From: Candidatus Methylomirabilis sp.
Lineage (GTDB): Bacteria > Methylomirabilota > Methylomirabilia > Methylomirabilales > Methylomirabilaceae
NCBI GenBank assembly: GCA_041498975.1
Contig: JBGQJI010000008.1
Coordinates: 1 to 34,581 of the forward strand
Direction of reading: 5' to 3'
Length of the DNA stretch: 34,581 nucleotides
Positions 17,620 to 34,401 of this stretch are shown piece after piece. The notes under the pieces were generated by a model. The model did not search any database. It saw nothing but the letters and a program-made list of their open reading frames with translations, and had not been told where the DNA came from. Each line of letters opens with the position of its first letter. The first letter of the stretch is position 1. Made by a program: the position numbers and the translations under genes.

Positions 17620-17791
17620 CCAATCCTGAGGGTATTCCTCGGGAGCACGGACAGCGGCCTATCACCGTCAGAGGCCGTGAGTTTCTGACGTATCTTACTC
17701 GTATGGGCCGAAGCCTCAACAAAGCAGGCTAGGCATCGACTTTGTGCTGGGCGCTTTGAAATGGTCGCCACTCGGTAGGAGGATTAGAAGG

Positions 17792-19474
17792 ATGCCGGTG
17801 TTACAATTCAAAGGGAAGACCGCCATCGAGTGCTATCACCACACCATTCCGCACCACACACTCGATTTTGATGAGAAGCTGTCGGTGATTGGGAAAGGAG
17901 AGAAGCCGCGCCTGGACCGCAACCTGATCATCGAAGGGGACAACCTCTTGGCCCTGAAAGCCCTTCTCCCTACCCATGCCGGCCAGATCAAGTGCATGTA
18001 TATCGATCCCCCCTACAACACCGGAAACGAAGGGTGGATCTACAACGACAATCTTACCCAGCCACAATTCAAAGAGTGGATCGGCGAGACCGTCGGAAAG
18101 GAAGGCGAGGACGCCACCCGCCATGACAAGTGGTGTTGCATGATGTACCCTCGCCTACAACTCCTGAAGGAGTTCCTTCGCGACGATGGAGCCATCTTCA
18201 TTAGCATCGACGACAACGAGGTCCAACACCTCCGCATGATGATGGATGAGATTTTTGGAGAGAATAATTTCATCGCCACTATTATTTGGCAGAAGATATA
18301 CTCGCCGAAGAGCTCCGCCAAATTCTTCTCAGAGAACCACGACTACCTGGTTGCGTATGCCAGAAGCCGTCAAGAATGGGATCGGAAACTCCTTCCGCGC
18401 ACAGAGGAGCAAAATGAACGGTATGACAATCCAGATAACGACCATCGTGGTCCCTGGAAGCCAAGCGGCTTGGATGCTAGGAATCCTTACAGCAAGGGGC
18501 GTTATACGATCAAATGTCCGGGCGGGCGAGTGATCCCCGGCCCGCCCGCTGGTGCCTATTGGCGTTATTCAGAGGAAAGGCTGAAGGCTTTGGACCGAGA
18601 TGGCCGGATTTCGTGGGGTAAGGATGGCAACAATGTGCCGGCGATCAAGCGTTTCCTGTCGGAGGTTAAGCAGGGAATCGTGCCCCAGACGATCTGGGGA
18701 TACGATGAGGTTGGGCATACACAGGACGCCAAGAAGGAGTACGTGGAAATCCTGAATGCAGAGGAAATCTTTACAACACCAAAGCCCGTAGCTTTAATCA
18801 AGCGGGTTGTCCAACTATCAACGGAGGCGGAGGATGTCATCCTCGACTCCTTCGCTGGGTCTGGCACAGCCGCCCATGCAGTGCTTGCCCTTAACAAAGA
18901 AGATGGCGGGAATCGGAGGTTCATCCTCGTTCAGATGCCTTATGACACCAAGGACAATGAGAAGGAGAAGTTCAATATCTGCCAGAGGATCACGGCGGAG
19001 CGAGTCAGACGGGTGATTCAGGGATACACCTTTACGAAGCGCGGCGGCAATGTCGGAGAGAAGAAGGAGAAGGTTGAAGGCCTAGCCGGGTCATTTACCT
19101 ATGCCCGAGTCGGCCCGCCGTTGTTCGGCGAGTATCGTAACCTGGGTGCGAAATTGCCCGCATACGACGAATTGGCCAAGTACATCTTCTATACTGAGAC
19201 GAGCCGAGATTTCGACCGTAAGGGGATGAATGAGAAGACCGGCAAGATCGGCGAGCATGCGGGAACCAGCTACTACCTACTCTATACGCCAAACAAGAAG
19301 AAGGATCGGGCGTTAGATCTAGAGTGGCTCAAATCGCTAGGAAAGACGGAGAAGAGCCGGAGCCTGGTGATATACTGCGAGAAGATCTGGGTCCACCGCG
19401 ACGATCTGGCGAAGTATGAGATGGACACAAATCGGACGGTCCGACCGATGCTTGTGCCGTTCAATTTGAAGTAA
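17792..19474 (+). CDS. mod: Type III restriction-modification methyltransferase (Mod)
   Basis: IEGDNL.ALK, YIDPPYNTG, IFISIDDNE, FTTPKP..LI and LDSFAGSGT (beta-class amino-MTase); ATG 17792 after AGGAGG. Confidence 0.93.
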   Translation: MPVLQFKGKTAIECYHHTIPHHTLDFDEKLSVIGKGEKPRLDRNLIIEGDNLLALKALLPTHAGQIKCMYIDPPYNTGNEGWIYNDNLTQPQFKEWIGETVGKEGEDATRHDKWCCMMYPRLQLLKEFLRDDGAIFISIDDNEVQHLRMMMDEIFGENNFIATIIWQKIYSPKSSAKFFSENHDYLVAYARSRQEWDRKLLPRTEEQNERYDNPDNDHRGPWKPSGLDARNPYSKGRYTIKCPGGRVIPGPPAGAYWRYSEERLKALDRDGRISWGKDGNNVPAIKRFLSEVKQGIVPQTIWGYDEVGHTQDAKKEYVEILNAEEIFTTPKPVALIKRVVQLSTEAEDVILDSFAGSGTAAHAVLALNKEDGGNRRFILVQMPYDTKDNEKEKFNICQRITAERVRRVIQGYTFTKRGGNVGEKKEKVEGLAGSFTYARVGPPLFGEYRNLGAKLPAYDELAKYIFYTETSRDFDRKGMNEKTGKIGEHAGTSYYLLYTPNKKKDRALDLEWLKSLGKTEKSRSLVIYCEKIWVHRDDLAKYEMDTNRTVRPMLVPFNLK

Positions 19475-19489
19475 CAAGGAGACACACGT

Positions 19490-19714
19490 ATGCCGAAGAG
19501 GAGCTATACCGGAATTTTGGAAAAGGAAGGCGATCTCTACGTAGCTCTGTGCCCAGAGCTTGATGTGGCCAGTCAAGGAGCAACAGTGGAAGAGGCAACC
19601 GCCAATCTCAAGGAAGCGGTGGAATTATTCCTGGAGTGTGCGGATCCCGAAGAAATCAAACAGCGACTGCACAGCGAGGTATTTGTAACAAGATTCGAAG
19701 CGGCGCATGGCTAG
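19490..19714 (+). CDS. hicB: HicB family antitoxin (short form, no DNA-binding domain)
   Basis: YVALCPELDVASQG.TVEEA.ANLKEAVELFLE; AAGGAG RBS. Confidence 0.92.
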   Translation: MPKRSYTGILEKEGDLYVALCPELDVASQGATVEEATANLKEAVELFLECADPEEIKQRLHSEVFVTRFEAAHG

Positions 19715-19928
19715 GCTTCGGGTCCTGTCGGGGCGGGAAGTTTGCCACATTCTCGAGGAACACGGATTCATTGAAGTGAGAAGGCGAGGAAGTCATGTCG
19801 TCATGCAGCGTCGGACACAGACAGGAACCGTGACCGTCCCGGTGCCTGATCATCCTGAGTTGAAAATGGGCACCCTCCTGTCGATCATCCGGCAGAGCGG
19901 TCTTTCTCGCGCGGAATTCGAGTCCTGA
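19707..19928 (+). CDS. hicA: HicA family mRNA interferase toxin
   Basis: LSGREV..IL..HGF..VRRRGSH....VPVP.H.EL..GTL.SIIRQSG. Confidence 0.93.
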   Translation: MARLRVLSGREVCHILEEHGFIEVRRRGSHVVMQRRTQTGTVTVPVPDHPELKMGTLLSIIRQSGLSRAEFES

Positions 19929-19941
19929 ATAGCGAGGCCCG

Positions 19942-22494
19942 ATGCAACTCAAGCGGTATCAGGGACGCGTTGTCCAGGAGGTGAAAATCTTCTTGGGAAC
20001 CCTCGCCGCGCAGCAAACGGCGGGAAACAAGAGGTATGCGGCATTGGAGGCCTGGGACGAGGCCAGGAAACAACTATCTCTTCCGGGACAGTATCACCCG
20101 CGCCGAAACGGTCTTGCTAAGGACCTGCCAATCTTCTGCATCAAAGTACCCACTGGCGGCGGAAAGACCTTGCTAGCCACCCAGATTCTCGGTCTGGTTC
20201 ATCAGACGATTCTCAAGAACCGCAATGGAACAGGGCTGGTGCTCTGGGTGGTCCCCAGCGACCAGATCTACAAGGACACGCTCAAGGCGCTACGTGATCG
20301 CAGGCACTTCTACCGAGAATCGCTGGAATTCGCCCTTTCTCGCCGCATCGAGGTCTGGGAGAAGCACGAGATTGCTCGACTGACGCCCGGCCAATTGCGC
20401 AGCAACCTGAACATATTGCTGTTGAAGCTCGCGAGCACTAATCGCGAGACCAGGGAACAACTCAAGTTCTTCCGTGACAGCGGCGGCAATATCGTCCAGC
20501 ACTTCCCTCCTGAGAACGAGCCGGAGCAACACAAAACACTTAAGGCCCGGATCCCAAACCTGGATATGCTGGCCGAAAACGAGGCGCGGGGCGAATACCT
20601 CGTCAAAACCTCGCTCGGCAATTTGGTCCGGCTGTGCGAGCCCGCGGTGATCCTGGATGAGGGGCACAAGGCGACCAGTGCCCTGGCTCGACAGACCATC
20701 GAGGGGTTTAACGCTTCCATTGTGATCGAACTTTCGGCCACCCCGCCGAAAGAAGCCAACGTCTTGGTGCGGGTTTCTGGAAAGGAACTTCTCGAAGAGG
20801 AGATGATCAAGCTCCCTATCAACATCGCCAACTCCAACCAGAAATCCTGGAAAGATTGTCTCACCCAGGCAAGAGACAAGCGTGAGGAGCTGTCAAGACT
20901 GGCAGCAGACCATTTCAAGGCGAACGGGAAGAGCATTCGCCCTATCGTACTGGTCCAGGTCGAGCGGACAGGCAGAGACCAACGGGATGCCGGGTTTGTT
21001 CACAGCGAGGACGTTAAGGAACATCTAATGCAGCGGCTGAGTATCCACGAATCGGCCGTCAAAATTAAAACCTCCGAGAAGGATGACATCGAGGGAATTG
21101 ACCTCTTAGCCGAAGGCTGCCCCGTGGAGTGGATCATCACCAAGGCCGCCTTGCAGGAGGGGTGGGACTGCCCGTTTGCCTACATCCTCGTTTCCCTCAC
21201 CAATACGGGAAGTCAACAGAGTATGACCCAGCTTGTGGGGCGGGTGCTGCGCCAGCCTTACGTGGAGAGGACGCGATTTGACGAGCTGAATGAAAGCTAT
21301 GTGTTCTGTTTGCGCCGCAAGGCGGCGGACATCACACGCGAGGTGAAGAAGGCGCTGGAACAAGAAGGTTACGAAGGAGAGGCGGCCAGCGTGGTGGACC
21401 GCAGCGAGGCTGACAGCAAGCTAGACGAAAGGCGCGAGGCGTCCATACGTCCTGAGTTTCTGCGGTACTATCGGAAACCCTTCCAGGGGAAAATCTACCT
21501 TCCTCGATTCTGCGTCAAGCGGGGGAGTGAATATGACGTCCTGGATTATTTCCGACATCTAATCAGCCAAGTGGACATCGCGCGGTTTGATTACAGCCGC
21601 GTGGACTGGAATATGTCGCAGGAGCTCGCGGCGGCGAGGGATTCCCTCTACAGACTGACGCTTGAACAGAGCAACCTTGAGCGTGTAGAGGAACGCGAAG
21701 TGGCTGTGCTGGAGACGGACGATCAGGTGAAGGCGTGGCTCGTGGCCAGCCTGCCCTTTGATTACTTCAGCCACAAACAGCTTCGTGACGTGGTAGGTCG
21801 CGTAATGGAGCGTCTGGTCGAGGTCAACCCGAGTCTCCCCGGCCGTCTTGGGTTGGTCAAGTTCCTGGTTCGTGACAAGATCGTCGGGCTAGTCGAACGC
21901 GAAACGGATCGCCAGACGCAGGCGGCGTTCGAGGACCACTTTACGAACAAACGGCTCTGCTTCTATCTCGAGTGCATAGAAGGGCGGTTTGAGATTCCGC
22001 AAAAGGTGCCGATCCATGCGACTCGCAGGTTAGTCCATGACAACAACGAGCCGGTGCAGCGCTCGCTGTTTGACTATGTGCCGGACGACTTCAACGAGTA
22101 CGAGAAGTCCGTGGCGCTCTACCTCGACAATCGCCCTGAGGTCCTGTGGTGGTATCGCAATCTTGTCGGCCCTCAGCACTTCTCGATTCAGGGGTATAAG
22201 CGGAACAAAGTCTATCCGGATTTCGTCGTCCAACAAGGTCGGGGCAAGAGTCCAGTTGCCTCAGTGGTAGTTGTGGAGAGCAAGGGCAAGCATCTCAAGG
22301 GGAACGAGGATACAACCTATAAGCGATCTGTTGCAGAGTATTTCGGGAAAATCGGTCGCAAGATTTCTTGGCAAAAGCTCGGGGAGGATTTCAAAGACCA
22401 GACATTCCGCTTTCAGGTCCTGGACGAGGGTGAGTACGAGGATCGAGATTGGCGGGATGATCTGAAAAGGCTCCTCGAGGAATCTGGAAGTTGA
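19942..22494 (+). CDS. res: Type III restriction endonuclease (Res): SF2 helicase plus PD-(D/E)xK nuclease
   Basis: VPTGGGKT, LDEGH, ELSATP, ALQEGWDCP, QLVGRVLRQP and C-terminal YPDFV...VESKG. Confidence 0.92.
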   Translation: MQLKRYQGRVVQEVKIFLGTLAAQQTAGNKRYAALEAWDEARKQLSLPGQYHPRRNGLAKDLPIFCIKVPTGGGKTLLATQILGLVHQTILKNRNGTGLVLWVVPSDQIYKDTLKALRDRRHFYRESLEFALSRRIEVWEKHEIARLTPGQLRSNLNILLLKLASTNRETREQLKFFRDSGGNIVQHFPPENEPEQHKTLKARIPNLDMLAENEARGEYLVKTSLGNLVRLCEPAVILDEGHKATSALARQTIEGFNASIVIELSATPPKEANVLVRVSGKELLEEEMIKLPINIANSNQKSWKDCLTQARDKREELSRLAADHFKANGKSIRPIVLVQVERTGRDQRDAGFVHSEDVKEHLMQRLSIHESAVKIKTSEKDDIEGIDLLAEGCPVEWIITKAALQEGWDCPFAYILVSLTNTGSQQSMTQLVGRVLRQPYVERTRFDELNESYVFCLRRKAADITREVKKALEQEGYEGEAASVVDRSEADSKLDERREASIRPEFLRYYRKPFQGKIYLPRFCVKRGSEYDVLDYFRHLISQVDIARFDYSRVDWNMSQELAAARDSLYRLTLEQSNLERVEEREVAVLETDDQVKAWLVASLPFDYFSHKQLRDVVGRVMERLVEVNPSLPGRLGLVKFLVRDKIVGLVERETDRQTQAAFEDHFTNKRLCFYLECIEGRFEIPQKVPIHATRRLVHDNNEPVQRSLFDYVPDDFNEYEKSVALYLDNRPEVLWWYRNLVGPQHFSIQGYKRNKVYPDFVVQQGRGKSPVASVVVVESKGKHLKGNEDTTYKRSVAEYFGKIGRKISWQKLGEDFKDQTFRFQVLDEGEYEDRDWRDDLKRLLEESGS

Positions 22495-23017: not shown

Positions 23018-23614
23018 TTACGCGAAGGGGGAGTGGCCGCCTCCCTTGGAGGGCTGGTAGTACGGATTGCTGCCCCCGGCATGGTCGGTGGAGTCGATGA
23101 TCTGGCGGATCTCGGGGACCGCTTCCTTGATCATCACCTCGATCCCCTGTTTCAGGGTCACGTCAGCCATCCCGCATCCCTGGCAGCCGCCGCCGAGGGC
23201 GATGTAGGCGATGTCGTCCTTCACGTCGAGGAGCGTCACGTGACCGCCATGCATGGCCACGCCAGGATTGACCTGGGTGTCGAGCACCTGCTGAACGGCT
23301 GCCGCCTTGGGGTCGGTCCACCCAGCATTCGGGTTGTCGATCTTAAAACCGCTTTCGGTGATACCCTCAACAAAGTCTATAGTCGCGCCCTGCAGCTTGA
23401 GCGCGCTCTCGGGATCGACGAACACCTTGAAACCGCCAGCGTCGATCACACTGTCCTCGGCCCCTTTGTCTTCCTCTCCCTCGAACCCGAGCTGGTACTG
23501 GAGGCTGCCGGGGCCGCCCCCTGTAACCGCCACGCGCAGTCCTAGACCCTGCTGACCCTCGGCCTCCAAGAGCCCAAGGATTCTCTTTTTTGCCGAATCA
23601 GTGACGTTAAGCAT
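23018..23614 (-). CDS. nfuA: Fe-S cluster carrier NfuA (degenerate A-type domain plus NifU C-terminal domain)
   Basis: LRVAV.GGG, GATIDF...GFKIDNPN, NPGVA.HGG.V, LGGGCQGC and D.TDH..G.NPYY. Confidence 0.92.
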   Translation of the reverse strand: MLNVTDSAKKRILGLLEAEGQQGLGLRVAVTGGGPGSLQYQLGFEGEEDKGAEDSVIDAGGFKVFVDPESALKLQGATIDFVEGITESGFKIDNPNAGWTDPKAAAVQQVLDTQVNPGVAMHGGHVTLLDVKDDIAYIALGGGCQGCGMADVTLKQGIEVMIKEAVPEIRQIIDSTDHAGGSNPYYQPSKGGGHSPFA

Positions 23615-23814: not shown

Positions 23815-25062
23815 TCAGAGGGCCTCAGGGAGTGGGGTGATGATGAACGTGAGTCGCCGGTGTGCTGCACGCAGCGCCGCCTCGACGCGCTCCGGGGTCT
23901 CGTCTCGAGCGAAGATGAACCCCAGGTACTTCATCCCCTCCGGCAGGGGGACGACCTCTTGCCCAATCGGGATGGTGATCTTGATCTCCTCGATCCCCGG
24001 GACCCGCTCGGCCTCCTCACGCCCCCGCACCTCCTGAAGGATCCCCGATTGCGGGATCGGGATCATCATGACGCCCGCGGGCTTGCGGTCGCGCTGCATG
24101 GAGACGATTTCCACTCCCAGGGCATGGCGGATGATCAGCTCTTCCAGCGACATGCCCGTGCCGAAGCGGAGCGTCCGGGAGCAAAGCCCGCCGATGGAAC
24201 GGGCGGCCACCTCGACGATCCAAGGCCCGTGCTCGTTGACCCGTAGCTCGGCGTGCACCGGCCCCTCCCGGAGCCCAAGGGCTTGTGCTGCGGCTGCCGT
24301 GCAGTCCGCGATCGCTGCCTGGGTCGTCGCGGGCAGACGGGAGGGTGTGACATAGATCGTCTCCTCGAAGAACGGCCCATCCAGAGGATCCGGCTTGTCG
24401 AAGAGAGCCAGCACCTGCAGGTCCCCCTTGACGAGGAGCCCTTCCAGCGCTACTTCCGTTCCCGGAACGAACTCCTCCACAAGAATTTGACGGGCCCCCT
24501 CGCCCATGGCGACAACCTCCGGAGTTCGCAGGATGGTCCCGATCCGGCGGAAGGCGTTCACGAACTGCGCGGGATCATCGGCGCGGATTACCCCCCGGCT
24601 GCCTGCGAGGATCGTTGGCTTGAGGACCACGGGGTATGGCACCGTGTCAGCCACAAGCGCCGGGTCGTCGTCAAGCGAGAAGAGCCAGTAGCGCGGGCTA
24701 GGGACGCCAGCCTGGGTCAGGAGCTTTCGCATGACGGACTTGTTCAGGGCGGCCTTTGCGGACTCGACAGAGTTAGATGGAAGCCCCAGCGCCTCGGCGA
24801 TCGCCGCGCCGGCCACGGTCGTCAGATCGTCCACAGGCACGACACCATCGATGGGATGAGGACGAGCAAACTCGGCAACCTCGAGGGCGGCCACGTCGGG
24901 CTTCATGAAGTCGATCGTCAGCAGGCCATCCGGAACTTTGTCTTGAAGTACATTCCGGCGATCCGATGCTACCACGACATCGACCCCAAGCCGATGCGCG
25001 GCTTCCATGAAGGCTTCGGTGCGGTAGGTGGTGGTAGGAATGAGCAAGAGGAGTCGCGACAT
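23815..25062 (-). CDS. ATP-grasp domain protein (L-amino-acid ligase-like)
   Basis: NK..MR..L..AGVP.P, YPVVLKP...GSRGVIR, LVEEFVPG.EVALEG and GPVHAELR...EVAARSIGG. Confidence 0.9.
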   Translation of the reverse strand: MSRLLLLIPTTTYRTEAFMEAAHRLGVDVVVASDRRNVLQDKVPDGLLTIDFMKPDVAALEVAEFARPHPIDGVVPVDDLTTVAGAAIAEALGLPSNSVESAKAALNKSVMRKLLTQAGVPSPRYWLFSLDDDPALVADTVPYPVVLKPTILAGSRGVIRADDPAQFVNAFRRIGTILRTPEVVAMGEGARQILVEEFVPGTEVALEGLLVKGDLQVLALFDKPDPLDGPFFEETIYVTPSRLPATTQAAIADCTAAAAQALGLREGPVHAELRVNEHGPWIVEVAARSIGGLCSRTLRFGTGMSLEELIIRHALGVEIVSMQRDRKPAGVMMIPIPQSGILQEVRGREEAERVPGIEEIKITIPIGQEVVPLPEGMKYLGFIFARDETPERVEAALRAAHRRLTFIITPLPEAL

Positions 25063-25074
25063 CTTGGCCTCTAT

Positions 25075-25182
25075 CTAGTGCCGTTCCAACCTCATCTGCT
25101 TAACGACACAATGACCAGCAGGCCTCTGAACCGCTCGTCGCATAGTTTTGCCATTTGTCCGAACAAGTTGGAACGGCACTAG
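25075..25182. mobile_element. 108-bp MITE-like element with 16-bp terminal inverted repeats
   Basis: CTAGTGCCGTTCCAAC (25075-25090) and GTTGGAACGGCACTAG (25167-25182); CTAG at both ends. Confidence 0.78.
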
Positions 25183-25859
25183 CTGCCCGACTGGCGTGCC
25201 CGATGGTATCCCTCCAGCTCGCGGTTGGCCCTGACGACAATGGCGAGCTTGCTCATCACTTCGGAGACCTTGAGGCCGGGGATGGCAACGTAGAGTTCGT
25301 CGTCGCCGAGTCCCGTATAGACTCGGTTGCCGATGCAGCCGAAGCTGATAGTGGCTCGATCTGCCTGCATCGTCTCTGGTAACATCGCGCAGGTTGGGCG
25401 CGGTCTCACTGCCACCTCAGGACCGATCCCAGCCAAGCGGGCGGCCTCGACCACGAGCATCACCTGCTTGGCTCGGCCTCGCACCAGGACCACATCCGGG
25501 TCGAAAGGCGCCCCGGGAAACGGCCCGTACATCGCCACGCCGAACGGTCCCGTCCGACGCGGGATGCTGGGAACCTCTTCCATCTTCAAATACTCGAGCT
25601 GGATCATGGCCTTCACAAGACCTTCCATCTCTTTGGCTTTCCCGACTGGCAGGTCCACGCCGTGCGTGTACGCCCCGATCGGGCAGTTGTAGTGATCTGC
25701 TGCCTCAGTGTAGAAGACCTTCCCCTCGGCAGCCAATTTCCAATAGCTGCACCCTGCCGGGCCGGCGGCTCCCACATGGGGGACACCGGGCGGTGCTACC
25801 GGGCGGAACGCGATGGCGACCGGAGCAAGGCTAAGGGCGAGGAGTTCCTGAAAGCTCAT
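25179..25859 (-). CDS. DUF169 family Cys-containing protein
   Basis: PVAIAF, GCSYW, NCPIG, DPDVVL.....QVM, RPTCA, SFGCIGNR.YT.L.DDEL; GGAGG RBS. Confidence 0.85.
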   Translation of the reverse strand: MSFQELLALSLAPVAIAFRPVAPPGVPHVGAAGPAGCSYWKLAAEGKVFYTEAADHYNCPIGAYTHGVDLPVGKAKEMEGLVKAMIQLEYLKMEEVPSIPRRTGPFGVAMYGPFPGAPFDPDVVLVRGRAKQVMLVVEAARLAGIGPEVAVRPRPTCAMLPETMQADRATISFGCIGNRVYTGLGDDELYVAIPGLKVSEVMSKLAIVVRANRELEGYHRARQSGS

Positions 25860-27388
25860 GGAATATCCTCCTGGACACTAGACTCCTGCATGTATGTGGG
25901 TTTGAGAGGGCCGAACTGGCCCTCGGTGGGTTCCGCTCAGCAAAACCAGGATTCGGTGAGTCGGGGCGGACGGTTCCCCTCACCTACCGGAGAGAGCGAG
26001 ACCGCCGGGACCTGTTGTCTCCCTGCCACGGTATAGGCGACCTCCCGAATTCTTTGAAACGTGACTCGTGGGTCCTCGGCAGCTCTGACGGCCTCCTCCA
26101 CGAGTCCGCTGACAACCTTGTGTAGCTCATCCATTCGCGTGTCCGGGTGGGTCCAGCGATACATGAATGACGCCTGATCCAACGCTCCCAGAAACGGCCG
26201 GATTGCGACTTGTTCAAGCAGCGCGGAACCGGGGGGGACCAGCAGCCGGATCGCAAACTGCACCGGGTCCACATGATCGACGAGATCCTCCGTCTGGACG
26301 AAATCGAGGATGTCCAGGTACTCTTCAATGGTCGTCCACGGGGTAAAGGGGACCCATGTGGGCCGTAGGGCAAAGCCGGCGTCCCGGACGATTCGAATCG
26401 CCTCGAACACGTCGGCCCTGGTGTGGCCCTTTTCCAGGTTGGCCAGCACCGTGTCGCTGAGCGACTCCACCGCGCTGACCATGAACACGCAGCCGAGCGC
26501 CCCGAGTTCGGGGAAGAGCGCCCGGCGCTTCAGGATATGCTCGACCTTGGCGGTGAAATCGAAGGTCAGTTCCGGAAACTCCCGGTGCATAGAGCGGACG
26601 ACGTTGAGGGAATGGCCGGGCCCATTCAGGAAGTCGGGGTCGCCAAACGTGATGTGGGTTGCGCCAGACCGGACCAGACGCCGGATGTCCTCGAGGACGA
26701 TCTCCTGGGGGACCACGAAGAATCGGCCTCCATAGACAGGCGGGATGGGACAGTGGAGGCACATATGGAGGCAGCCCCGACTTGCCTCGACGTATCCCGC
26801 CAGCGCCCGGCTGCCATTACGCTCGAGGTGGGCGTACTCCTCCAGAGCCGGCAGCCGGCCCCGGCTCGGAATCGGGAAGGGTAGCCGCTTGAGGAACGGT
26901 GCTGAGGGCTGGCCCCGCCTCCACACACCTTCGACAGCGGAAGAACGACCTGCCTCCAATGCTTGGACAAGACTGACCAGCGGCGTCTCGAACTCGCCCC
27001 CGATCACCGAATCCGCGATATGGTCGAGCAGGTAGTCGGCGTTCAGCGAGGCGTAGAGCCCGTAGAGGCAGATTTGGCAGGTCGGATTGACCTGACGGAC
27101 CTGCTCGGCCACCCGGATCCCCAGCCGCAGCGCCGTGTGCATCGGGACCGAGACCCCCACAAAGCTGGCCCGCGCCACTCTCCTTACATCGAAGCTCTCG
27201 ACGGAGATGTCGAGCGCGTCAGGCGCGTACCCTGCACGCTCGAGGAACCCGAGCGGAGACGCGACGCCAAGGGGCTGGTGGCCGAGCTCATAGCAGGAGA
27301 TGAGCAGGATCGATCCCGGCTCCCGTAGACGCATCGCGCGGTTACAATCAGTTGTGATAACGTGTGTTAGTACTGGCAAAGCGACCAT
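25856..27388 (-). CDS. CUAEP-tail radical SAM selenoprotein (B12-binding-like N-terminus; TGA 25939-25937 read as Sec)
   Basis: EASRGCLHMCLHC (CxxxCxxC) and HITFGDPDF; readthrough gives PPRLTESWFC-U-AEPTEGQFGPLKPTYMQESSVQEDIP*, with the true stop overlapping the DUF169 ATG (ATGA); start is 27388 or 27334. Confidence 0.88.
25906..25924 (-). promoter_or_regulatory. Bacterial SECIS-like stem-loop
   Basis: Starts 12 nt after the UGA: GAGGGCC-AGUUC-GGCCCUC; apical loop 19 nt from the UGA with G at loop position 2. Confidence 0.72.
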
Positions 27389-27459: not shown

Positions 27460-27978
27460 TTATGGCACGTCAACGAGATAGCCCGAGATGGTCCACTCGA
27501 TCTGCGCGGGTCCGTTCGGTGTGTCGCGATTGATAATCAGCGCGACTTGCTTTCCGGGGTCCGCGTAGAGCTTCACGGCATGAGTGCCCGTCCAGACGAG
27601 CCCCGACGGGCCGAACGATATAGGGGTCATCGACAGGTAAAAGTCGATGAAGTCGGAGCCGATTGGGGGCTGGATGCGAGTCTCCAGGGTCTGCCCAGTC
27701 CTGGAGATAGCGTGGACGGAAATGGATTCGATCACCAGCCGTTTGCCAGCCGGCACCGTAAAACCTTTCCCGCCATTAAATGAAAGGTCGTCAAGGGTGA
27801 AGAACTCCTTGGCGATGAACGGTGTCCGGGCCCGATGGTCGACGTCGCGCACCGGGACGGGCGCGGTTGGCGTATTGACGACTTTTACGTCCTGGACGGC
27901 TGCGCAGCCGCTTAGCAAAAGGGCGCCAATGAGGCTCGCGAGGATCGCAGCCGGCATCTGATTCCTAACCTGATCCAT
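27460..27978 (-). CDS. Hypothetical lipoprotein
   Basis: GGAGGAGG RBS before ATG 27978; hydrophobic signal with lipobox LSGC; beta-rich body (TVPAGKRLVIE.IS, ISGYLVD). Confidence 0.7.
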   Translation of the reverse strand: MDQVRNQMPAAILASLIGALLLSGCAAVQDVKVVNTPTAPVPVRDVDHRARTPFIAKEFFTLDDLSFNGGKGFTVPAGKRLVIESISVHAISRTGQTLETRIQPPIGSDFIDFYLSMTPISFGPSGLVWTGTHAVKLYADPGKQVALIINRDTPNGPAQIEWTISGYLVDVP

Positions 27979-28111
27979 TCTTCCTCCTCCAATCAGCTTT
28001 AGGTCCGGATTTCGCGCCTTCCATGTGTCGGCGGATATGCGACGGTGCCAGCGGAAATGCTGAGGGAAAATCCGTCGATCCAATGGGGGGATATCGAAGG
28101 CAGGGCACCTG

Positions 28112-28639: not shown

Positions 28640-30373
28640 CTAAAAGGCGTCCGGAGCCGAGGCGATGGCTTCGAGGTCGGCTCTCGTGTACGAGCCCAAG
28701 GCCCTGAAATTAAGCTCCGTGTAGTTTTTGATCCACCGCATCGCGATTTTCACCGCCTTGTGGTACCGCTCCTCGGCCTTCGCGTACGCCGACTCACTGT
28801 TCGGGTCACCCTTCTTTACTGTCGCCTGTAGCTGCGCCAGAATGTCCCGCCCCTCTTCCTGCAGCAGCTTCTTCACCAGAGGGAAATCGTGCACGAGAGA
28901 CGGGGTGTGCGTATCCCTGGCATGGTGCCGGGTCCTCTGTGCGATTTGGGCCACCGAAATGCGACCTGTCGCCAGATCTTCCATCAACGCGGGATGGATG
29001 CCCGGTTTGCCGGCCAGGCTGTCGATCCCTTTGGCGCCCCTGCCATTCAACCACCCCTCAAGATATTCGATCAGCATTCTGGCGTTTCGGCGTGTCCCCT
29101 CGACGGTGATCGGGCCATCGGGGACTCTGATCTCGATGGGATAATTGTCCGGGTTGGCCATCTCTGGCGTCGGCTTCCAGCCGGAGGCAAGCAGTTCCTT
29201 GAAGGGATCTGCGGCCGGTTTCATATGAAAGATATGAGCGACCCAGCCCCTGATGAACCCTTGCCGGGCCTCCCAGACCTTATCCGCCCTGATGGCCTCC
29301 GCCGCCACCCGATTGACCTCAGGATTATTACTGGGCAACGGCGTGGCCATGCCGCCGATGGGGACGGCCCCCCTCTTCAGGCAGATCGCCACCAGGCGCC
29401 TGAAGATATTTGCCAGAAATGGGGTCGTCTTGATGTCGATGCCGAACCGATCCGGCCACACGGATTTGGGGTCCGCCATCACGAACTCATAGATGCTGGC
29501 CTGGAAATCCCAGCGCGCGGCGTTCAGCCCGCCCGCGTAGGGCCCCAGGGCATACAGCATCTCTTCCATCTCATACGCCGCGGGCAGCGATTCGATCAGG
29601 TGAATGGCACTGATGACGGCGTTGCCGAGGAAATCCAGGTGATCGCGGCTGGCGTCAAAGAAGTCTCGCCAGAAGGCCGCCTCTTCGGCCGATTCCAGCT
29701 TCGGGAGGTAGAAGTAAATCCCCTGGCCGCGTTCGGCCTGCGCCCGACCGGCGTAGAAGAAGGTCAGAGCGGTGCCGAGGATGCTGGCGGGGATAGGCGC
29801 TCCATCGACGGTGACCTCAGGCTCATCCAGATGGAGGCCACGCTCCCTGTGCATGAAGAAGGGGAGTTCGCCCTCGGCGATCCTGTACTCCTTGCCCTTC
29901 TGCGGATCGGAGAAGGTGAGCGTACGATTGACGGCAGCCAGGCGGTTCTTGGTGGCTCTTACCGTATCGATAAACCGATGCCCGGCGGAATCTTCATCAT
30001 CGTCCAGATCGCCCTCGGCTCTGGTACCCTCCGGCCCCGGATTGAGCGCATTGATGAACATGGCCGTGATCGAGGCCGGGCCCGATATCTCGATCCCCGG
30101 CTTGAGCAAGTCTTCGGGCACCGGAGGAACCCCCCAGTTCCCCGTGTTGATGTCACTGAGGGGAAGGTGCGTCGGCAGGATCCCCTGCTCATGAGTCCTC
30201 TTGAGCACCTGAGCGCGTCGAGCACGCAGCAGATAGATCCGAGGCGTGAATCGATCGTGCAGACGCAACAGATACTCCATGAACGCCGGGGTAAACAGCT
30301 CCGCAGCCCCTTCCACCGGCGCAAAACGGACTCGTCCCATACTCGACATTCCTGAAGCTACCTTCGCACCCAC
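28640..30373 (-). CDS. Malate synthase-like protein (divergent)
   Basis: EISGP, DDEDS, HRERGLHLDE, YFYLPKLE..EEA, LIES.PA..EMEE.LY.L, GLNAARWDF, IGGMA, GWVAH and LMEDLAT. Confidence 0.85.
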   Translation of the reverse strand: MGAKVASGMSSMGRVRFAPVEGAAELFTPAFMEYLLRLHDRFTPRIYLLRARRAQVLKRTHEQGILPTHLPLSDINTGNWGVPPVPEDLLKPGIEISGPASITAMFINALNPGPEGTRAEGDLDDDEDSAGHRFIDTVRATKNRLAAVNRTLTFSDPQKGKEYRIAEGELPFFMHRERGLHLDEPEVTVDGAPIPASILGTALTFFYAGRAQAERGQGIYFYLPKLESAEEAAFWRDFFDASRDHLDFLGNAVISAIHLIESLPAAYEMEEMLYALGPYAGGLNAARWDFQASIYEFVMADPKSVWPDRFGIDIKTTPFLANIFRRLVAICLKRGAVPIGGMATPLPSNNPEVNRVAAEAIRADKVWEARQGFIRGWVAHIFHMKPAADPFKELLASGWKPTPEMANPDNYPIEIRVPDGPITVEGTRRNARMLIEYLEGWLNGRGAKGIDSLAGKPGIHPALMEDLATGRISVAQIAQRTRHHARDTHTPSLVHDFPLVKKLLQEEGRDILAQLQATVKKGDPNSESAYAKAEERYHKAVKIAMRWIKNYTELNFRALGSYTRADLEAIASAPDAF

Positions 30374-30553
30374 GTGAATCTCCTTCCCTCCTATTCCGAC
30401 AAAGGGATGTGATGGTTGGTTGGATTGCCCAGGAGTCCTCGCACCGCGTGGAATCGATCCGATTTGGTTTCGCCGACGTGATGAAACACCGATCGAGGGG
30501 TGGGATGCCCCGGAACGCCACCAATGTGCTCCGTGCCTCCCAATCTTAGCCTC

Positions 30554-30581
30554 AGTCTAGCTTGCTTTCTCCCTCTGTCAA
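30554..30581 (-). promoter_or_regulatory. Putative sigma70 promoter upstream of the malate synthase gene
   Basis: Minus strand TTGACA-N16-TAGACT. Confidence 0.55.
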
Positions 30582-30642
30582 GAAAAACGTCACCAAAGCC
30601 GGAGCTTGAAACCGACCTTGCGAGCTCCGGCATCTGTTGTGC

Positions 30643-32775
30643 TCAGCCCCCCACCGAAGGCTTCGCAACGGAGGCATTGCGGCGCGACCACTGCACCGCC
30701 GTTATGAACACCCCACAAACCACACCGGCGGCGTCGCCGTAGCCCCAGGGGAAGATCATCGCCAAGGCGCCGGCCAACAGCACGCCGCGCTCCCACCAGC
30801 GGGCCGGGGCCACCAGGTAGCCCATGATCGCCGCGCCTAACAGCGTGACGCCGATAAAAGCCGTCAGGCTAGAGAGGGCGATCTGCAGCCAGCTTCCCTC
30901 CATCAGCAACCCCCGCTCGTAGACGAACAGGTAGGGGACCACAAAGCCTGAAATCGCCAACTTGCATGCAGTCCAGGCGGTCTTGCTCGGGTCGGCCTGG
31001 GCGATGCCCGCGCCCGCCAAGGCTGCCAGGGCCACCGGCGGCGTCAGATCGGCAAAGAGTCCGAAGTAGAAAACAAACATATGAGACACCAATGGAGGGA
31101 CGCCCATCTGCGCCAAGGCCGGCGCTGCCATAGCGGCCGTGACCACATAGGTCGGGATGGTCGGCAGCCCGGTCCCCAGGACGATGGAGGCGATCATGGT
31201 GAAGAACAGCGCGAGGAAGAGATTCCCCCCTGCCAGCGACACGATGGCCGAGGCCAGTTTGGCCCCCATACCCGTCTGCGTGGCCACGCCGATGACAAAA
31301 CCAATCACCGCACAGGCCATGGCCACGCCGAGGGCGCTACGCGTTCCGTGCTCCAGGCTGGTCAGCATCTGCCGCACCGGCGCGCGGCTGACGGGCTTCC
31401 ACACCGCCCACATCAGCAGCCACCCAACCGGCACCAAAGCCGTCTCCGGCTTCGCGGCATTCAGGGACACGCACAGGGTTAGGGCCCCGCCCAACGACAG
31501 GATGCGAACCGGCAGGCTCGCCTGAGCGGAGAAGATGGCTTTGACCAGGATGATCGCCACCGTCAGCAAGATGCCGATGAAGCCGGCGTAGAGCGGCGTA
31601 TAGCCCGAAAACAGCAGGTATGTCAGGACTCCCAGGGGTAACAGCAGATAGCCGCGCGCTCTCAACACTTCCCAGAACCTTGGCAACTCCTGGCGCGGCA
31701 GTCCCTTGAGCCCCAGACGGCCAGCCTCCTGGTGCACCTGAACGCCAACGGCCAGGAAGTAGAGGATGGCGGGAATGGTGGCCGCCTTGGCGATGGTGAA
31801 ATATGGCACTCCGAGAGTGTCGGCCATAATGAACGCCACTGCCCCCATGACCGGGGGCATGATCTGCCCCCCCATCGAGGCGGTCGATTCGACCGCCGCG
31901 GCAAACTGAGGGGTGAAGCCGGTGCGCTTCATCAGCGGAATGGTAAAGGAGCCGATGGTGACCACGTTGGCGATGGCGCTGCCGTTGAGCATACCGAACA
32001 GCGCCGAACTGATGATGCCGACCTTGGCGGAGCCGCCTTTGGTGTGCCCCACTAGGGACAGGGCCAGATCTGAGAACAGGCTGATCATGCCGGCCTGCTC
32101 CAGGAAGGCGCCGAATAACACGAACAGGAAGATGTAGGTCGCGCTGACTCCAAGGGCGATCCCGAAAATCCCCTCCGTGGTGAGGTACGTATAGTCAAGG
32201 ATATCCAGGACACCATAGCCACGGTGTGCGATGACATTTGGCAACCACGGTCCCAGGTAGGCATAGGCCAGGAACCCCAGGGCCAGGATCGACAGCTCCG
32301 CGCCCAGGGCCCGCCGGCTGCCCTCCAGGATGAGCAGGCTGGTCAGCGCCCCCATCGCCAGATCCACGTTGCTGGGGGTGCCGGCCCGCAACACGAGATC
32401 GCGGTAGAAGATCGGGATGTAAAGGGCGCCACACGCCCCCAGCACCGCCAGGAGCAGGTCCCACCAGGGGACGCGCTGCTCCCCCACGCCGGGCCGCTGG
32501 CGGAACGGGTAGAGCAGGAATGTGAGCGCGAGGATGAAAGCCAGATGGACGGCGCGCTGCACATGCGCGTTGAGAAGGCCGAAGCCGGCCGTGTAGAGCT
32601 GGTAAAGCGCCAGGGAGAGCGCCACGGCAAAAACCAGCCGCCGGCTTATCCCTGCCAGTGGCCGAAACCGAAACTCGGCGTCGTACCTGGCGAGCGTGGT
32701 GTCCACATCGACAGGGTCAACCTTTGCGGGCGTTTGCGGCTTCTGCGTATGCTTAGGGGCGTCGTGGCTTTCCAT
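30643..32775 (-). CDS. TRAP transporter fused permease (4TM/12TM, TAXI-associated)
   Basis: EGIFG.ALGVSATYIFLF, GSAIANVVT.GSFTIPLMK, GGQIMPPVMGA and ADLTPPVALAA. Confidence 0.94.
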   Translation of the reverse strand: MESHDAPKHTQKPQTPAKVDPVDVDTTLARYDAEFRFRPLAGISRRLVFAVALSLALYQLYTAGFGLLNAHVQRAVHLAFILALTFLLYPFRQRPGVGEQRVPWWDLLLAVLGACGALYIPIFYRDLVLRAGTPSNVDLAMGALTSLLILEGSRRALGAELSILALGFLAYAYLGPWLPNVIAHRGYGVLDILDYTYLTTEGIFGIALGVSATYIFLFVLFGAFLEQAGMISLFSDLALSLVGHTKGGSAKVGIISSALFGMLNGSAIANVVTIGSFTIPLMKRTGFTPQFAAAVESTASMGGQIMPPVMGAVAFIMADTLGVPYFTIAKAATIPAILYFLAVGVQVHQEAGRLGLKGLPRQELPRFWEVLRARGYLLLPLGVLTYLLFSGYTPLYAGFIGILLTVAIILVKAIFSAQASLPVRILSLGGALTLCVSLNAAKPETALVPVGWLLMWAVWKPVSRAPVRQMLTSLEHGTRSALGVAMACAVIGFVIGVATQTGMGAKLASAIVSLAGGNLFLALFFTMIASIVLGTGLPTIPTYVVTAAMAAPALAQMGVPPLVSHMFVFYFGLFADLTPPVALAALAGAGIAQADPSKTAWTACKLAISGFVVPYLFVYERGLLMEGSWLQIALSSLTAFIGVTLLGAAIMGYLVAPARWWERGVLLAGALAMIFPWGYGDAAGVVCGVFITAVQWSRRNASVAKPSVGG

Positions 32776-32807
32776 ACACCCTCTCTGCAGAAGAGACGAA
32801 GAGAGAT

Positions 32808-32839
32808 GAAAGAAAAGAGGCGAGCTCGCACTCGCCTCT
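32808..32839 (-). terminator. Intrinsic terminator-like hairpin between the SBP and permease genes
   Basis: AGAGGCGAG-TGCGAG-CTCGCCTCT followed by TTTCTTTC on the minus strand. Confidence 0.65.
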
Positions 32840-32869
32840 GATGTTCTTACTGGAAGGCTATGGCGGGCG

Positions 32870-33835
32870 TTATCTCAGGACCTTCTTCTCCCGATAGAAC
32901 CGCTCCGCTCCAGGATGGAGCGGTATCGGCAGACCGACGGTGGCGGTGGCCAGTTGGATCTCCTTCGCCGCCACGTGGGCCAGCACCAGGCGGTCCAGGT
33001 TCTCGAAGATCGCCCTGGTCAGCTCATAGACCACTTTTTCATCCAGATCGTCCCGGGTAATGAGGAAGTTAGGGATGGCGACAGACTTTACCGGCGCATC
33101 CTGGTTCTTGTACGTCCCTTTGGGAATGGCCGTCGGAGAGAAAAAGGGATGAGTGGCCGTGAGGGTCTTTACCACGGTCTCCTCAATCGGCACCACCGCG
33201 ATCCCCTGGCTGAAGGCCAGATCCAGCACGCTGGGGTTGGGCAACCCGGAGCTGACCAGGGTGGCGTCGATGGCGCGGTTCTTGAGCTGGTCTACCGACT
33301 CGACGAAGCTGAGATAGTCGGTCCGCCCGAAGTCTTTGTAGCTCATGCCGGCCGCCTCCAAGATCTGCCGGGCGTTGATTTCCGTCCCGCTCCCGGGCGC
33401 GCCCACGGAGACCTTTTTCCCTCTCAGGTCGGCGAGGCTGCTGATACCGCTGTCCTTACGGGCGACGATCTGAATGATATTCGGGTAGAGGTCGGCCACA
33501 ACCCGCAGCTTGGTAAGCGGCTTGGTGAAGCCCCCCAGGGAGTCCCCCTTGTAGGCAAAGGCCAGCGTATCCCCGAGCACCAGGGCGAGGTCGCTCTTGC
33601 CTTCCTGGACCTGTATACAATTCACCTTGGAAGCGGCGGTCGTCTGCGCAGAGGCGTTGTAGCCCGTCAGTTTCTTGTTGAAGATATCGGCCATCGCCGC
33701 ACCGATCGGGAAATAGGCCCCACCAGTGCCGCCGGTAGCGATAGAGATGAACTGCACCGCGCCGCTTGTCGCCATCGTGCTGCAGACGACCGCAACGCCG
33801 GCCAGCAGCGTGAACAGTCTGAATCTCTTCGCCAT
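32870..33835 (-). CDS. TAXI family TRAP solute-binding protein
   Basis: IATGGTGGAYFPIG, T.AS..N, DLRGKKVSVGAPGSGTE and PLHPGA.RFY. Confidence 0.95.
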   Translation of the reverse strand: MAKRFRLFTLLAGVAVVCSTMATSGAVQFISIATGGTGGAYFPIGAAMADIFNKKLTGYNASAQTTAASKVNCIQVQEGKSDLALVLGDTLAFAYKGDSLGGFTKPLTKLRVVADLYPNIIQIVARKDSGISSLADLRGKKVSVGAPGSGTEINARQILEAAGMSYKDFGRTDYLSFVESVDQLKNRAIDATLVSSGLPNPSVLDLAFSQGIAVVPIEETVVKTLTATHPFFSPTAIPKGTYKNQDAPVKSVAIPNFLITRDDLDEKVVYELTRAIFENLDRLVLAHVAAKEIQLATATVGLPIPLHPGAERFYREKKVLR

Positions 33836-33849
33836 ACGGCCTCCACCAT

Positions 33850-34401
33850 TTACGGACGATCGGCCGGCACGTCACGCCTCGGCCGCAAGAGAATGGCCTG
33901 TTCCCCGGCGATCTCCAGCAGCGAGACGCGCACAGCGCCGCTTTCCAGCCAGTGGGGCGAGAGCGGGCTCAGGCTGATCGGCAGGGAGTCCAGCTCCAGG
34001 CTAACCGGCTCATAGACCAGCCAGCCCTGCTCCATCCGGAAACCATCGCCTTCCCGCTGACGATCCGGCGTCCCTGCGCCGTATCCGTGCGTAGCGCTGC
34101 TCAGGAGGCGCAGCCGACCGCCTGGCGTGACCTGGAATGCCTCGCGCCACTGAAAATGCTCGACGGAGTGCTCCCAGGCCAGCGTAAAATTCCCATCCTT
34201 TTCGACCGGTACTGTCTGCAGGAGTCGGGGCGGATGGGTCTGCGTCCAGATCTGCAACTCGCTGGCGCCCATTACTTCTTTCGGCACCAGCAGGATCCCC
34301 GCGCAAAGAACCATCCCAAGGGTCAACACGGTCTCTCGCACCTCAAGAAAGATCCGAGTCTTCCCCCGCGCCACTGTCGAAATCAACGTGACACTCCCCA
34401 A
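33850..34401 (-). CDS. DUF1850 family protein (TAXI-TRAP associated)
   Basis: FTL.W.HSVE...W.E.F and YGAG.P motifs; adjacent to the TAXI SBP; start uncertain. Confidence 0.8.
   Translation of the reverse strand: MGSVTLISTVARGKTRIFLEVRETVLTLGMVLCAGILLVPKEVMGASELQIWTQTHPPRLLQTVPVEKDGNFTLAWEHSVEHFQWREAFQVTPGGRLRLLSSATHGYGAGTPDRQREGDGFRMEQGWLVYEPVSLELDSLPISLSPLSPHWLESGAVRVSLLEIAGEQAILLRPRRDVPADRP

Follow-up and report, generated by a model that had tools for sequence, protein, structure and literature searches.

An in-frame UGA codon in a CUAEP-tail radical SAM gene of Candidatus Methylomirabilis, very probably read as selenocysteine

Does a gene that gene callers close at a UGA codon really end there? 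The question is raised by a gene for a radical S-adenosylmethionine (SAM) enzyme on the minus strand of contig JBGQJI010000008.1 (GenBank assembly GCA_041498975.1), from Candidatus Methylomirabilis sp. of the phylum Methylomirabilota. All coordinates refer to the window, that is, the whole stretch of 34,581 nucleotides that was analysed (positions 1 to 34,581 of the forward strand). The analysis indicates that the apparent stop codon almost certainly encodes selenocysteine (Sec, U). Four independent lines agree on Sec, as judged from the sequences compared: the Cys/Sec pair at this position, the frame downstream of it, an RNA element and the insertion machinery. The reading in which this gene belongs to the curated NF040546 family and has its UGA recoded under the direction of a selenocysteine insertion sequence (SECIS) is considered very likely; the soft-site function that is assigned to its product by analogy, within a conserved cassette, is put forward far more tentatively.

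The finding mainly corrects an annotation: the protein would be 27 residues longer than its gene call, and the missed part bears the likely catalytic Cys–Sec pair. It is of value for the chemistry of an enzyme that is very widespread, and not for the recoding event itself.

The reading frame and the protein tail

Four features of the gene bear directly on the question:

25856..27388, minus strand: full-length coding sequence of the predicted CUAEP-tail radical SAM selenoprotein, 510 amino acids with U484
25937..25939, minus strand: in-frame UGA, probably read as selenocysteine U484; the codon is TGA at 27/76 loci and a Cys codon at 49/76
25856..25858, minus strand: predicted true stop of the selenoprotein (TGA), overlapping the ATG of a DUF169 gene (25857-25859) as ATGA
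25906..25924, minus strand: putative bacterial SECIS hairpin with a 7-bp stem and the loop AGUUC, supported by fold, conservation and covariation

Under translation table 11, the open reading frame covers 25937..27388 (minus strand, 483 amino acids) and ends in L-T-E-S-W-F-C before the TGA at 25939-25937. When this codon is read as U, the frame goes on through A-E-P-T-E-G-Q-F-G-P-L-K-P-T-Y-M-Q-E-S-S-V-Q-E-D-I-P, a total of 26 sense codons, and the protein tail reads W-F-C483-U484-A-E-P-T. This extension is the longest among 30 Methylomirabilota loci, in which the range is 14-26 codons. An initial annotation, made from the letters of the DNA, had described the frame closing at WFC, its continuation through UGA and A-E-P for 26 codons, and the final TGA overlapping the next ATG, and all of these lie exactly where it had placed them. 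It had also supposed that standard annotation truncates the protein, and the protein collection indeed holds the window's own protein as an entry of 483 amino acids ending in WFC.

The other end of the gene is less certain, with ATG 27388 and ATG 27334 (M19) both candidates for the start codon. The N-termini of homologues are split in the same region, with either about 10-13 or about 29-30 residues ahead of a conserved SCYELGHQP motif.

Translated through the UGA, the protein matches the NCBIfam model NF040546, "CUAEP/CCAEP-tail radical SAM (seleno)protein" (an equivalog model with a cut-off of 500), with 716.1 bits, in line with the earlier statement that a family with such tails exists. Positions 1-467 of the 468-position profile align with residues 27-493, reaching nine residues past the UGA, and a six-frame search of the genome with the same model gives 709.8 bits with one TGA inside the match. 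By this profile evidence, the gene is a member of an already curated family, and its CU tail is already catalogued. Nothing that defines the family differs in the window protein, which has the same W-F-C-U-A-E-P tail, the radical SAM motif and the B12-like N-terminal domain. In full-text literature searches, the single relevant paper was a preprint in which one sentence describes NF040546 as an uncharacterised CU-motif selenoprotein (Haft, bioRxiv 10.1101/2022.07.06.499078), and a search of the main text of a 2026 review of the prokaryotic selenoproteome (PMC13188914) found neither the family name nor the accession.

Conservation of the codon and of the downstream frame

Cysteine had been anticipated in homologues at the position of the UGA, and it is found there in both protein and DNA comparisons. 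Among the 120 best listed database matches to the protein, the last residue is the C of W[FY]C in 98; the other 22 have W[FY]C-C-x-E-P and run on for 15-35 residues. At the DNA level, 80 loci were collected from one-genome-per-species collections of Nitrospirota, Methylomirabilota, Acidobacteriota, Planctomycetota and others. The tail motif is present at 76 of them, the codon being TGA in 27 and TGY (TGT or TGC) in 49. Four loci lack the motif; in at least three of them the match does not extend as far as the tail, and in two of those three it runs up to, or nearly up to, the locus end.

A second set was restricted to Methylomirabilota and comprises the window locus and 29 others. All 30 carry TGA at the Sec position together with the CUAEP motif. 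Behind the UGA, A-E-P-T-x-x-Q is conserved throughout this set and also in the Cys forms, and the codons for Ala, Glu, Pro and Thr vary at synonymous third positions alone (alignment A1, 30 loci).

Selenocysteine machinery in the assembly

The initial annotation had predicted that the genome should encode the Sec genes, and selA (594.8 bits), selB (378.4), selD (398.6) and the tRNA-Sec gene (71.4) were all found in the same assembly, each above its curated cut-off. The tRNA has the anticodon UCA (reported by ARAGORN as tRNA-SeC, tca) and lies near selB on the same contig. The assembly consists of 241 contigs and is 84.9% complete with 0.4% contamination.

As a separate observation, selD (contig C199, 1054-1980, minus strand) has an in-frame TGA of its own at the conserved G-A-G-U-A-C-K site, and selenophosphate synthetase (SelD) is, on this sequence pattern, itself a selenoprotein in this genome. 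The SECIS of selD folds differently from the hairpin of the radical SAM gene.

The hairpin downstream of the UGA

A perfect 7-bp stem with the loop AGUUC, starting 12 nt past the UGA, had been described beforehand and is present exactly so. Its 5' arm is GAGGGCC (25924-25918), the loop occupies 25917-25913 and the 3' arm is GGCCCUC (25912-25906), the whole being coded by the E-G-Q-F-G-P-L codons. The distance from UGA to loop is 19 nt and the minimum free energy (MFE) is -15.5 kcal/mol. Bacterial SECIS elements follow a consensus of Zhang and Gladyshev, as cited in PMC13188914, that sets a loop of 3-9 nt, a stem of 4-16 bp, a G in the first two loop positions, a UGA-to-loop distance of 16-37 nt and an MFE of at most -7.5 kcal/mol. 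The window hairpin fits this consensus with its 5-nt loop, G at the second loop position followed by U, 7-bp stem, 19-nt distance and -15.5 kcal/mol, in line with the earlier interpretation of the structure as a SECIS. No U-run follows it. Among the 20 open frames of at least 200 codons in the window that end in TGA, the radical SAM gene alone has such a hairpin after it.

The hairpin accompanies the codon across genomes. With the criteria of a stem of at least 5 bp, a loop of 3-5 nt and a start 11-15 nt past the codon, it occurs in all TGA forms, both within the phylum (30/30) and across several phyla (27/27), the loop beginning 19-21 nt past the UGA, and in only three of the 49 Cys forms. 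The mean MFE is -12.9 kcal/mol for TGA forms and -6.0 kcal/mol for Cys forms.

Stem pairs were examined with a covariance model built on 20 sequences, which aligned all 57 TGA-bearing loci, the counts being taken on 47 distinct rows. This alignment was used for the pair counts in place of the MAFFT alignment A1, which contains no gaps and leaves the 3' arms of hairpins with 4-nt and with 5-nt loops out of register. In the 47 rows, paired cells make up 92.7%, as against at most 64.5% in slid controls, and five of the seven stem pairs have changed on both sides in a compensatory manner. Compensatory cells number 38, compared with 10.8 +/- 2.4 in shuffles, and none of 500 shuffles reaches 38. Furthermore, an identical 3' arm is encoded in two frames, as G-Q-F-G-P-L with the 5-nt loop and as G-Q-L-A-L with the 4-nt loop, which argues that the RNA rather than the peptide is conserved there.

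The (A)GUU of the loop arises from Gln-Phe/Leu codons; the Gln is invariant in 16 aligned Cys forms too, with Phe or Leu as its usual next residue, so the SECIS element overlies a pre-existing peptide constraint.

Several observations weigh against the Sec reading. Taken as a single sequence, the hairpin does not fold significantly, 12 of 200 dinucleotide shuffles folding equally well or better (z -1.88), and a comparable hairpin follows 1221 of 69042 positions of the window (about 1.8%). A scan of 25700-26100 at E <= 10 returned no curated Rfam family for the hairpin. The criteria behind the counts of 27/27 and 3/49 were set after the Sec forms had been seen, and the pair-count alignment, being fitted to the model structure, favours that structure somewhat. 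The Sec genes lie on other contigs (C23, C73 and C199) than the window, so their co-occurrence with the radical SAM gene rests on binning. Finally, a full-text literature search with the family name and accession found no direct selenium evidence for any NF040546 member. The argument from the 3' arm kept in two frames is independent of the model-fitted alignment, and by these sequence comparisons the comparative evidence puts the hairpin far beyond chance. The Rfam scan also gave one snoRNA-like match of 14.6 bits, which was judged to be due to chance.

One alternative is that the UGA is a genuine stop, with a protein ending in WFC and an intergenic hairpin that stabilises or attenuates the mRNA. 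Gene callers end the protein in this way, the DUF169 gene follows close behind, and the fold of the single sequence is, as stated, not significant. None of this would account for the 26 open codons past the UGA, in which A-E-P-T-x-x-Q is kept with synonymous changes only, nor for the Cys-form homologues that run straight through the position or a curated profile that extends beyond it. A hairpin with a function in mRNA stability or attenuation also sits poorly with the missing U-run and with its loss where the codon is TGY. A genuine stop is thus judged very improbable.

Even less credence is given to read-through without Sec, by near-cognate insertion of Trp or Cys or by a reassigned code, although any read-through would give the same conserved downstream frame. 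TGA closes 20 of the 46 open frames of at least 200 codons in the window, which means that the codon has not been reassigned. In addition, the assembly has a complete Sec machinery, a co-varying SECIS that fits the consensus lies at the right distance, and the alternative residue is Cys, forming the classical Sec/Cys pair. Against both alternatives stand the conservation of the frame beyond the UGA, the ordinary role of TGA as a stop in the window and the loss of the hairpin in Cys forms.

In the recoding that is proposed instead, the ribosome would not read the UGA at 25939-25937 as a stop, and the hairpin 12 nt downstream would serve as the SECIS. This element would recruit SelB-GTP-Sec-tRNA(Sec), leading to the insertion of Sec as residue 484, and translation would run 26 more codons, ending at the TGA shared in part with the DUF169 start codon.

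Fold and conserved cysteines

The product is predicted to be a class-B-like radical SAM enzyme, combining a B12-domain fold and a CxxxCxxC motif with the tail W-F-Cys483-Sec484-A-E-P-T. An N-terminal Rossmann fold resembling B12 domains is followed by the radical SAM core and then by the C-terminal tail. The core motif is C206-L-H-M-C210-L-H-C213 (CxxxCxxC; Pfam PF04055, 48.3 bits), and the Pfam B12-binding model PF02310 gives 31.4 bits, just under its cut-off of 32.1. An AlphaFold2 model based on a 63-sequence alignment has a mean predicted local distance difference test (pLDDT) score of 88.7 and a predicted template modelling (pTM) score of 0.88; residues 1-14 and 498-511 fall below pLDDT 50 and are disordered.

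In Foldseek searches, the nearest solved folds are those of OxsB (5ul3), AprD4 (6fd2), TsrM (6wtf) and MgmA (9ccb), followed by MiaB and RimO. The overall fold is shared with these class B radical SAM enzymes (Foldseek E 2e-18 to 1e-15, query TM-score (TMq) 0.54-0.64). However, OxsB, AprD4, TsrM and MgmA are only 13-19% identical to the window protein, and none of them has a Cys-Sec or Cys-Cys tail. At the sequence level, 9ccb is the only match in the Protein Data Bank (PDB) (E 9.6e-10). It was considered as a possible ArsL structure and rejected, since 9ccb is MgmA; no ArsL structure was found in PDB sequence or fold searches with the window protein.

In all 101 distinct family sequences, Cys occupies positions 206, 210 and 213 as well as position 483 in the tail, and Cys32, in the S-C-Y-E-L-G-H-Q-P motif, is Cys in 77 of the 79 family sequences with a residue there. 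Outside CxxxCxxC, only C32, C483 and U/C484 are near-invariant. Other cysteines are less conserved, namely C104 (70/101), C107 (92/101) and C300 (96/101).

Comparison with ArsL and the proposed function

The closest studied relative of the window protein is ArsL, whose model (NF040542) is its second-best NCBIfam match, with 335.8 bits over residues 27-433; the next model reaches 51.8. Four proteins with a KRCC[IL]KC tail are 33-36% identical to it and have their CC aligned with C483-U484, and in both types the domains follow in the same order and two adjacent cysteines (Cys-Sec in the window protein) stand close to the C-terminus. ArsL has been reported to cleave the C-gamma-S bond of SAM and to attach the 3-amino-3-carboxypropyl group onto As(III) bound by the three cysteines of its RCCLKC tail (bioRxiv 10.1101/2024.02.01.577332, 10.64898/2026.04.29.721666).

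The analogy with ArsL has several points against it. The score of 335.8 bits falls short of the 450 set as the cut-off for ArsL. In place of R-C-C-L-K-C the protein has C-U-A-E-P-T, a tail with no third Cys, which is placed about 40 residues further out, behind an extra segment. No arsM- or arsQ-type match to Pfam or NCBIfam was found among the window genes scanned. In the AlphaFold2 model, the tail around the Cys-Sec pair reaches a pLDDT of only 66-82. CUAEP genes have as their neighbours an ATP-grasp ligase and Nfu or DUF169, in contrast to the ArsM and ArsQ of ArsL. By the sequence comparison, the protein is not a member of ArsL proper on score, tail or neighbours. A further difference concerns residue 32, which is T, A or S in the four ArsL-type proteins and a near-invariant Cys in the CUAEP family alone.

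By analogy, a soft thiolate/selenolate site is proposed, made up of the Cys-Sec pair and probably also Cys32, that would hold a substrate atom or serve in redox at the active site. The enzyme would act within a cassette comprising an ATP-grasp protein of the L-amino-acid-ligase type and an iron-sulfur (Fe-S) carrier (Nfu), DUF169 or both. The preferred version, put forward tentatively, is a three-ligand soft site (Cys32, Cys483 and Sec484) that may present an atom to ArsL-like chemistry, the ATP-grasp ligase using the product. A more explicit version is unlikely as a whole: in it, these residues hold a soft metalloid or chalcogen atom at the radical SAM cluster, the 3-amino-3-carboxypropyl group of SAM is joined to that atom as in ArsL, and the ligase turns the product, an unusual amino acid, into a dipeptide. 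If it were true, Methylomirabilota, Nitrospirota, Acidobacteriota and Planctomycetota would share a widespread and so far unrecognised pathway to organo-metalloid or organo-chalcogen amino acids, in which Nfu and DUF169 are alternative helpers.

About equally likely as the three-ligand soft site is canonical 5'-deoxyadenosyl chemistry, possibly a cobalamin-dependent alkylation, in which the Cys-Sec pair would be a redox selenenylsulfide delivering electrons or an H atom; this, too, can be offered only tentatively. The proximity of the fold to OxsB, AprD4, TsrM and MgmA fits such an enzyme, as does the statement in PMC13188914 that Sec is found in redox motifs in the majority of known selenoproteins. 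The B12-binding match cuts both ways, being detectable at 31.4 bits and yet just below the cut-off. On the other side, the ArsL model scores six times any class-B methylase model, and the CU dyad has been discussed as a heavy-atom-binding motif (bioRxiv 10.1101/2022.07.06.499078).

The tail could also ligate or feed an auxiliary Fe-S cluster serving as a sacrificial source of S or Se, as in LipA or MiaB. Such a role would explain a dedicated carrier, given that an Nfu/NifU gene adjoins 24/27 loci with Sec forms and 20/29 in the phylum, and the similar structures include MiaB and RimO. It is nonetheless improbable. Since only C32, C483 and U/C484 are near-invariant beyond CxxxCxxC, a full set of auxiliary-cluster ligands is not evident, C104, C107 and C300 being less conserved as given above. 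The Nitrospirota Cys forms mostly go without Nfu and have DUF169 instead, and the Fe/S content was reported as unchanged in tail-truncated ArsL. A candidate auxiliary-cluster Cys triad in the N-terminal domain was weakened by the presence of Cys at position 104 in only 70 of 101 sequences.

The chemistry matters through the frequency of the enzyme, which occurs in 176 of 251 phylum genomes and has 560 cluster representatives at E <= 1e-30, through its only studied relative, which forms a C-As bond, and through its regular association with an amino-acid ligase. Handles on it are the invariant Cys32, the switches between Sec and Cys in the family's phylogeny and the division between Nfu and DUF169 as partners, and natural Cys orthologues from Nitrospira should express easily.

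Distribution and evolution of the family

The 176 Methylomirabilota genomes with an NF040546 match above the cut-off include three of the five unpublished genomes among the 251 (G034, G044, G075, G216 and G217); without these five, the count is 173/246, and no further result depends on them. Among the best 150 phylum matches, 148 have exactly one in-frame TGA, and the two without TGA stop before the tail (at profile positions 455 and 435), one of them abutting a contig end. Some genomes of the phylum (G112, G246 and G038) have two full-length family copies each, with one TGA per copy. Within the window's own genus, the gene is found in four of 19 other genomes and is missing from one complete single-contig genome; it is an accessory gene there.

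A family tree was built from 101 distinct sequences and 445 residues through Cys483, so that the Sec/Cys position itself was excluded; five identical duplicates and the four loci without the motif were left out. It implies at least six switches between Sec and Cys, at least three of them forced by well-supported branches. The Nitrospirota form a single all-Cys clade (42 rows, support 100), and single Cys forms are nested in Sec clades.

An exhaustive search of 1.84 billion cluster representatives returned 8468 proteins at E <= 0.001, the 560 at E <= 1e-30 among them. The tails of the best 150 of the 8468 are CCxEP in 41, a W[FY]C end in 40, a variant CC in seven and KRCC[IL]KC in five; two have another C end, and the remaining 55 are fragments or carry a tail of none of these kinds.

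Gene neighbourhood

On the minus strand, the order of genes and other elements is a 207-aa gene, the radical SAM gene, DUF169, a repeat of about 108 nt, the ATP-grasp gene and an NfuA-like gene. Besides the radical SAM gene, these are:

27460..28083, minus strand: upstream gene of 207 amino acids, without Pfam or NCBIfam match and with unnamed hypothetical clusters only in the Atlas
25179..25859, minus strand: DUF169 protein (COG2043), 226 amino acids (PF02596, 83 bits), its start overlapping the selenoprotein stop
25075..25182, no strand assigned: dispersed repeat of about 108 nt that separates DUF169 from the ATP-grasp gene and is bounded by perfect inverted repeats of 16 nt
23815..25062, minus strand: ATP-grasp enzyme of the L-amino-acid-ligase type, 415 amino acids (ATP-grasp_4, LAL_C2 and ATPgrasp_N domains)
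23018..23614, minus strand: NfuA-like Fe-S carrier with A-type and NifU domains, 198 amino acids (domain matches)

The ATP-grasp gene is the most conserved neighbour of the NF040546 family. A match is present at 55 of the 76 loci (Sec 21/27, Cys 34/49), on the same strand and directly downstream or upstream in 54 and on the opposite strand in one. The PDB relatives of the window's ATP-grasp protein are the L-amino acid ligase 3vot (1.6e-43) and then BacD (about 4e-18).

The two helper genes are distributed differently, a NifU-domain gene standing beside 29 of the 76 loci (Sec 24/27, Cys 5/49) and DUF169 beside 38 (Sec 2/27, Cys 36/49). This split follows the tree, dividing Nitrospirota from the rest, and so cannot count as independent support for a connection with Sec. 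At the other 29 phylum loci, flanks of 1.5 kb contain an ATP-grasp gene in 17, NifU in 20 and DUF169 in two. Compared with other family members, the window locus is unusual in having DUF169 and the NfuA-type gene together, and in the repeat of about 108 nt ahead of its ATP-grasp gene. No PDB relative of DUF169 was found by sequence search; in two papers that mention it the context is anecdotal, placing it beside HgcAB in Nitrospina and in weak co-occurrence with YedE.

The repeat is MITE-like (miniature inverted-repeat transposable element) or REP-like (repetitive extragenic palindrome) and lies outside the system. Its 16-mer occurs, with at most one mismatch, in 48 + 61 = 109 copies in the genome, and the reversed control in none; the copies often form plus/minus pairs 92-101 nt apart. 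The 207-aa gene is probably outside the system as well, given its lack of a family match and its absence beside the radical SAM gene at the other 105 loci (29 phylum loci and 76).

In a mostly Blastocatellia clade, selD (334.9 bits) is found about 4 kb upstream of the radical SAM gene, at six of the 76 loci (L124:4326-5246, minus strand, and five more). An ATG22/MFS-type transporter gene lies just downstream at eight of the 76 (L111:8161-9525, minus strand, and seven more).

Further upstream in the window, 28640-34401 (minus strand) holds a malate-synthase-like gene, a fused TRAP (DctM) permease, a TAXI-type receptor (NMT1_3) and DUF1850. At other loci these genes are not conserved next to the radical SAM gene, and neither is an upstream PNPOx-like gene; a malate synthase match is found at only one of the 29 other phylum loci (L024) and at none of the 76. 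On the other side of the cassette, 17744-22494 (plus strand) encodes an N6/N4 DNA methylase (576 amino acids) followed by a ResIII/DEAD helicase-type protein (850 amino acids), which are likely to form a restriction-modification pair next to it.

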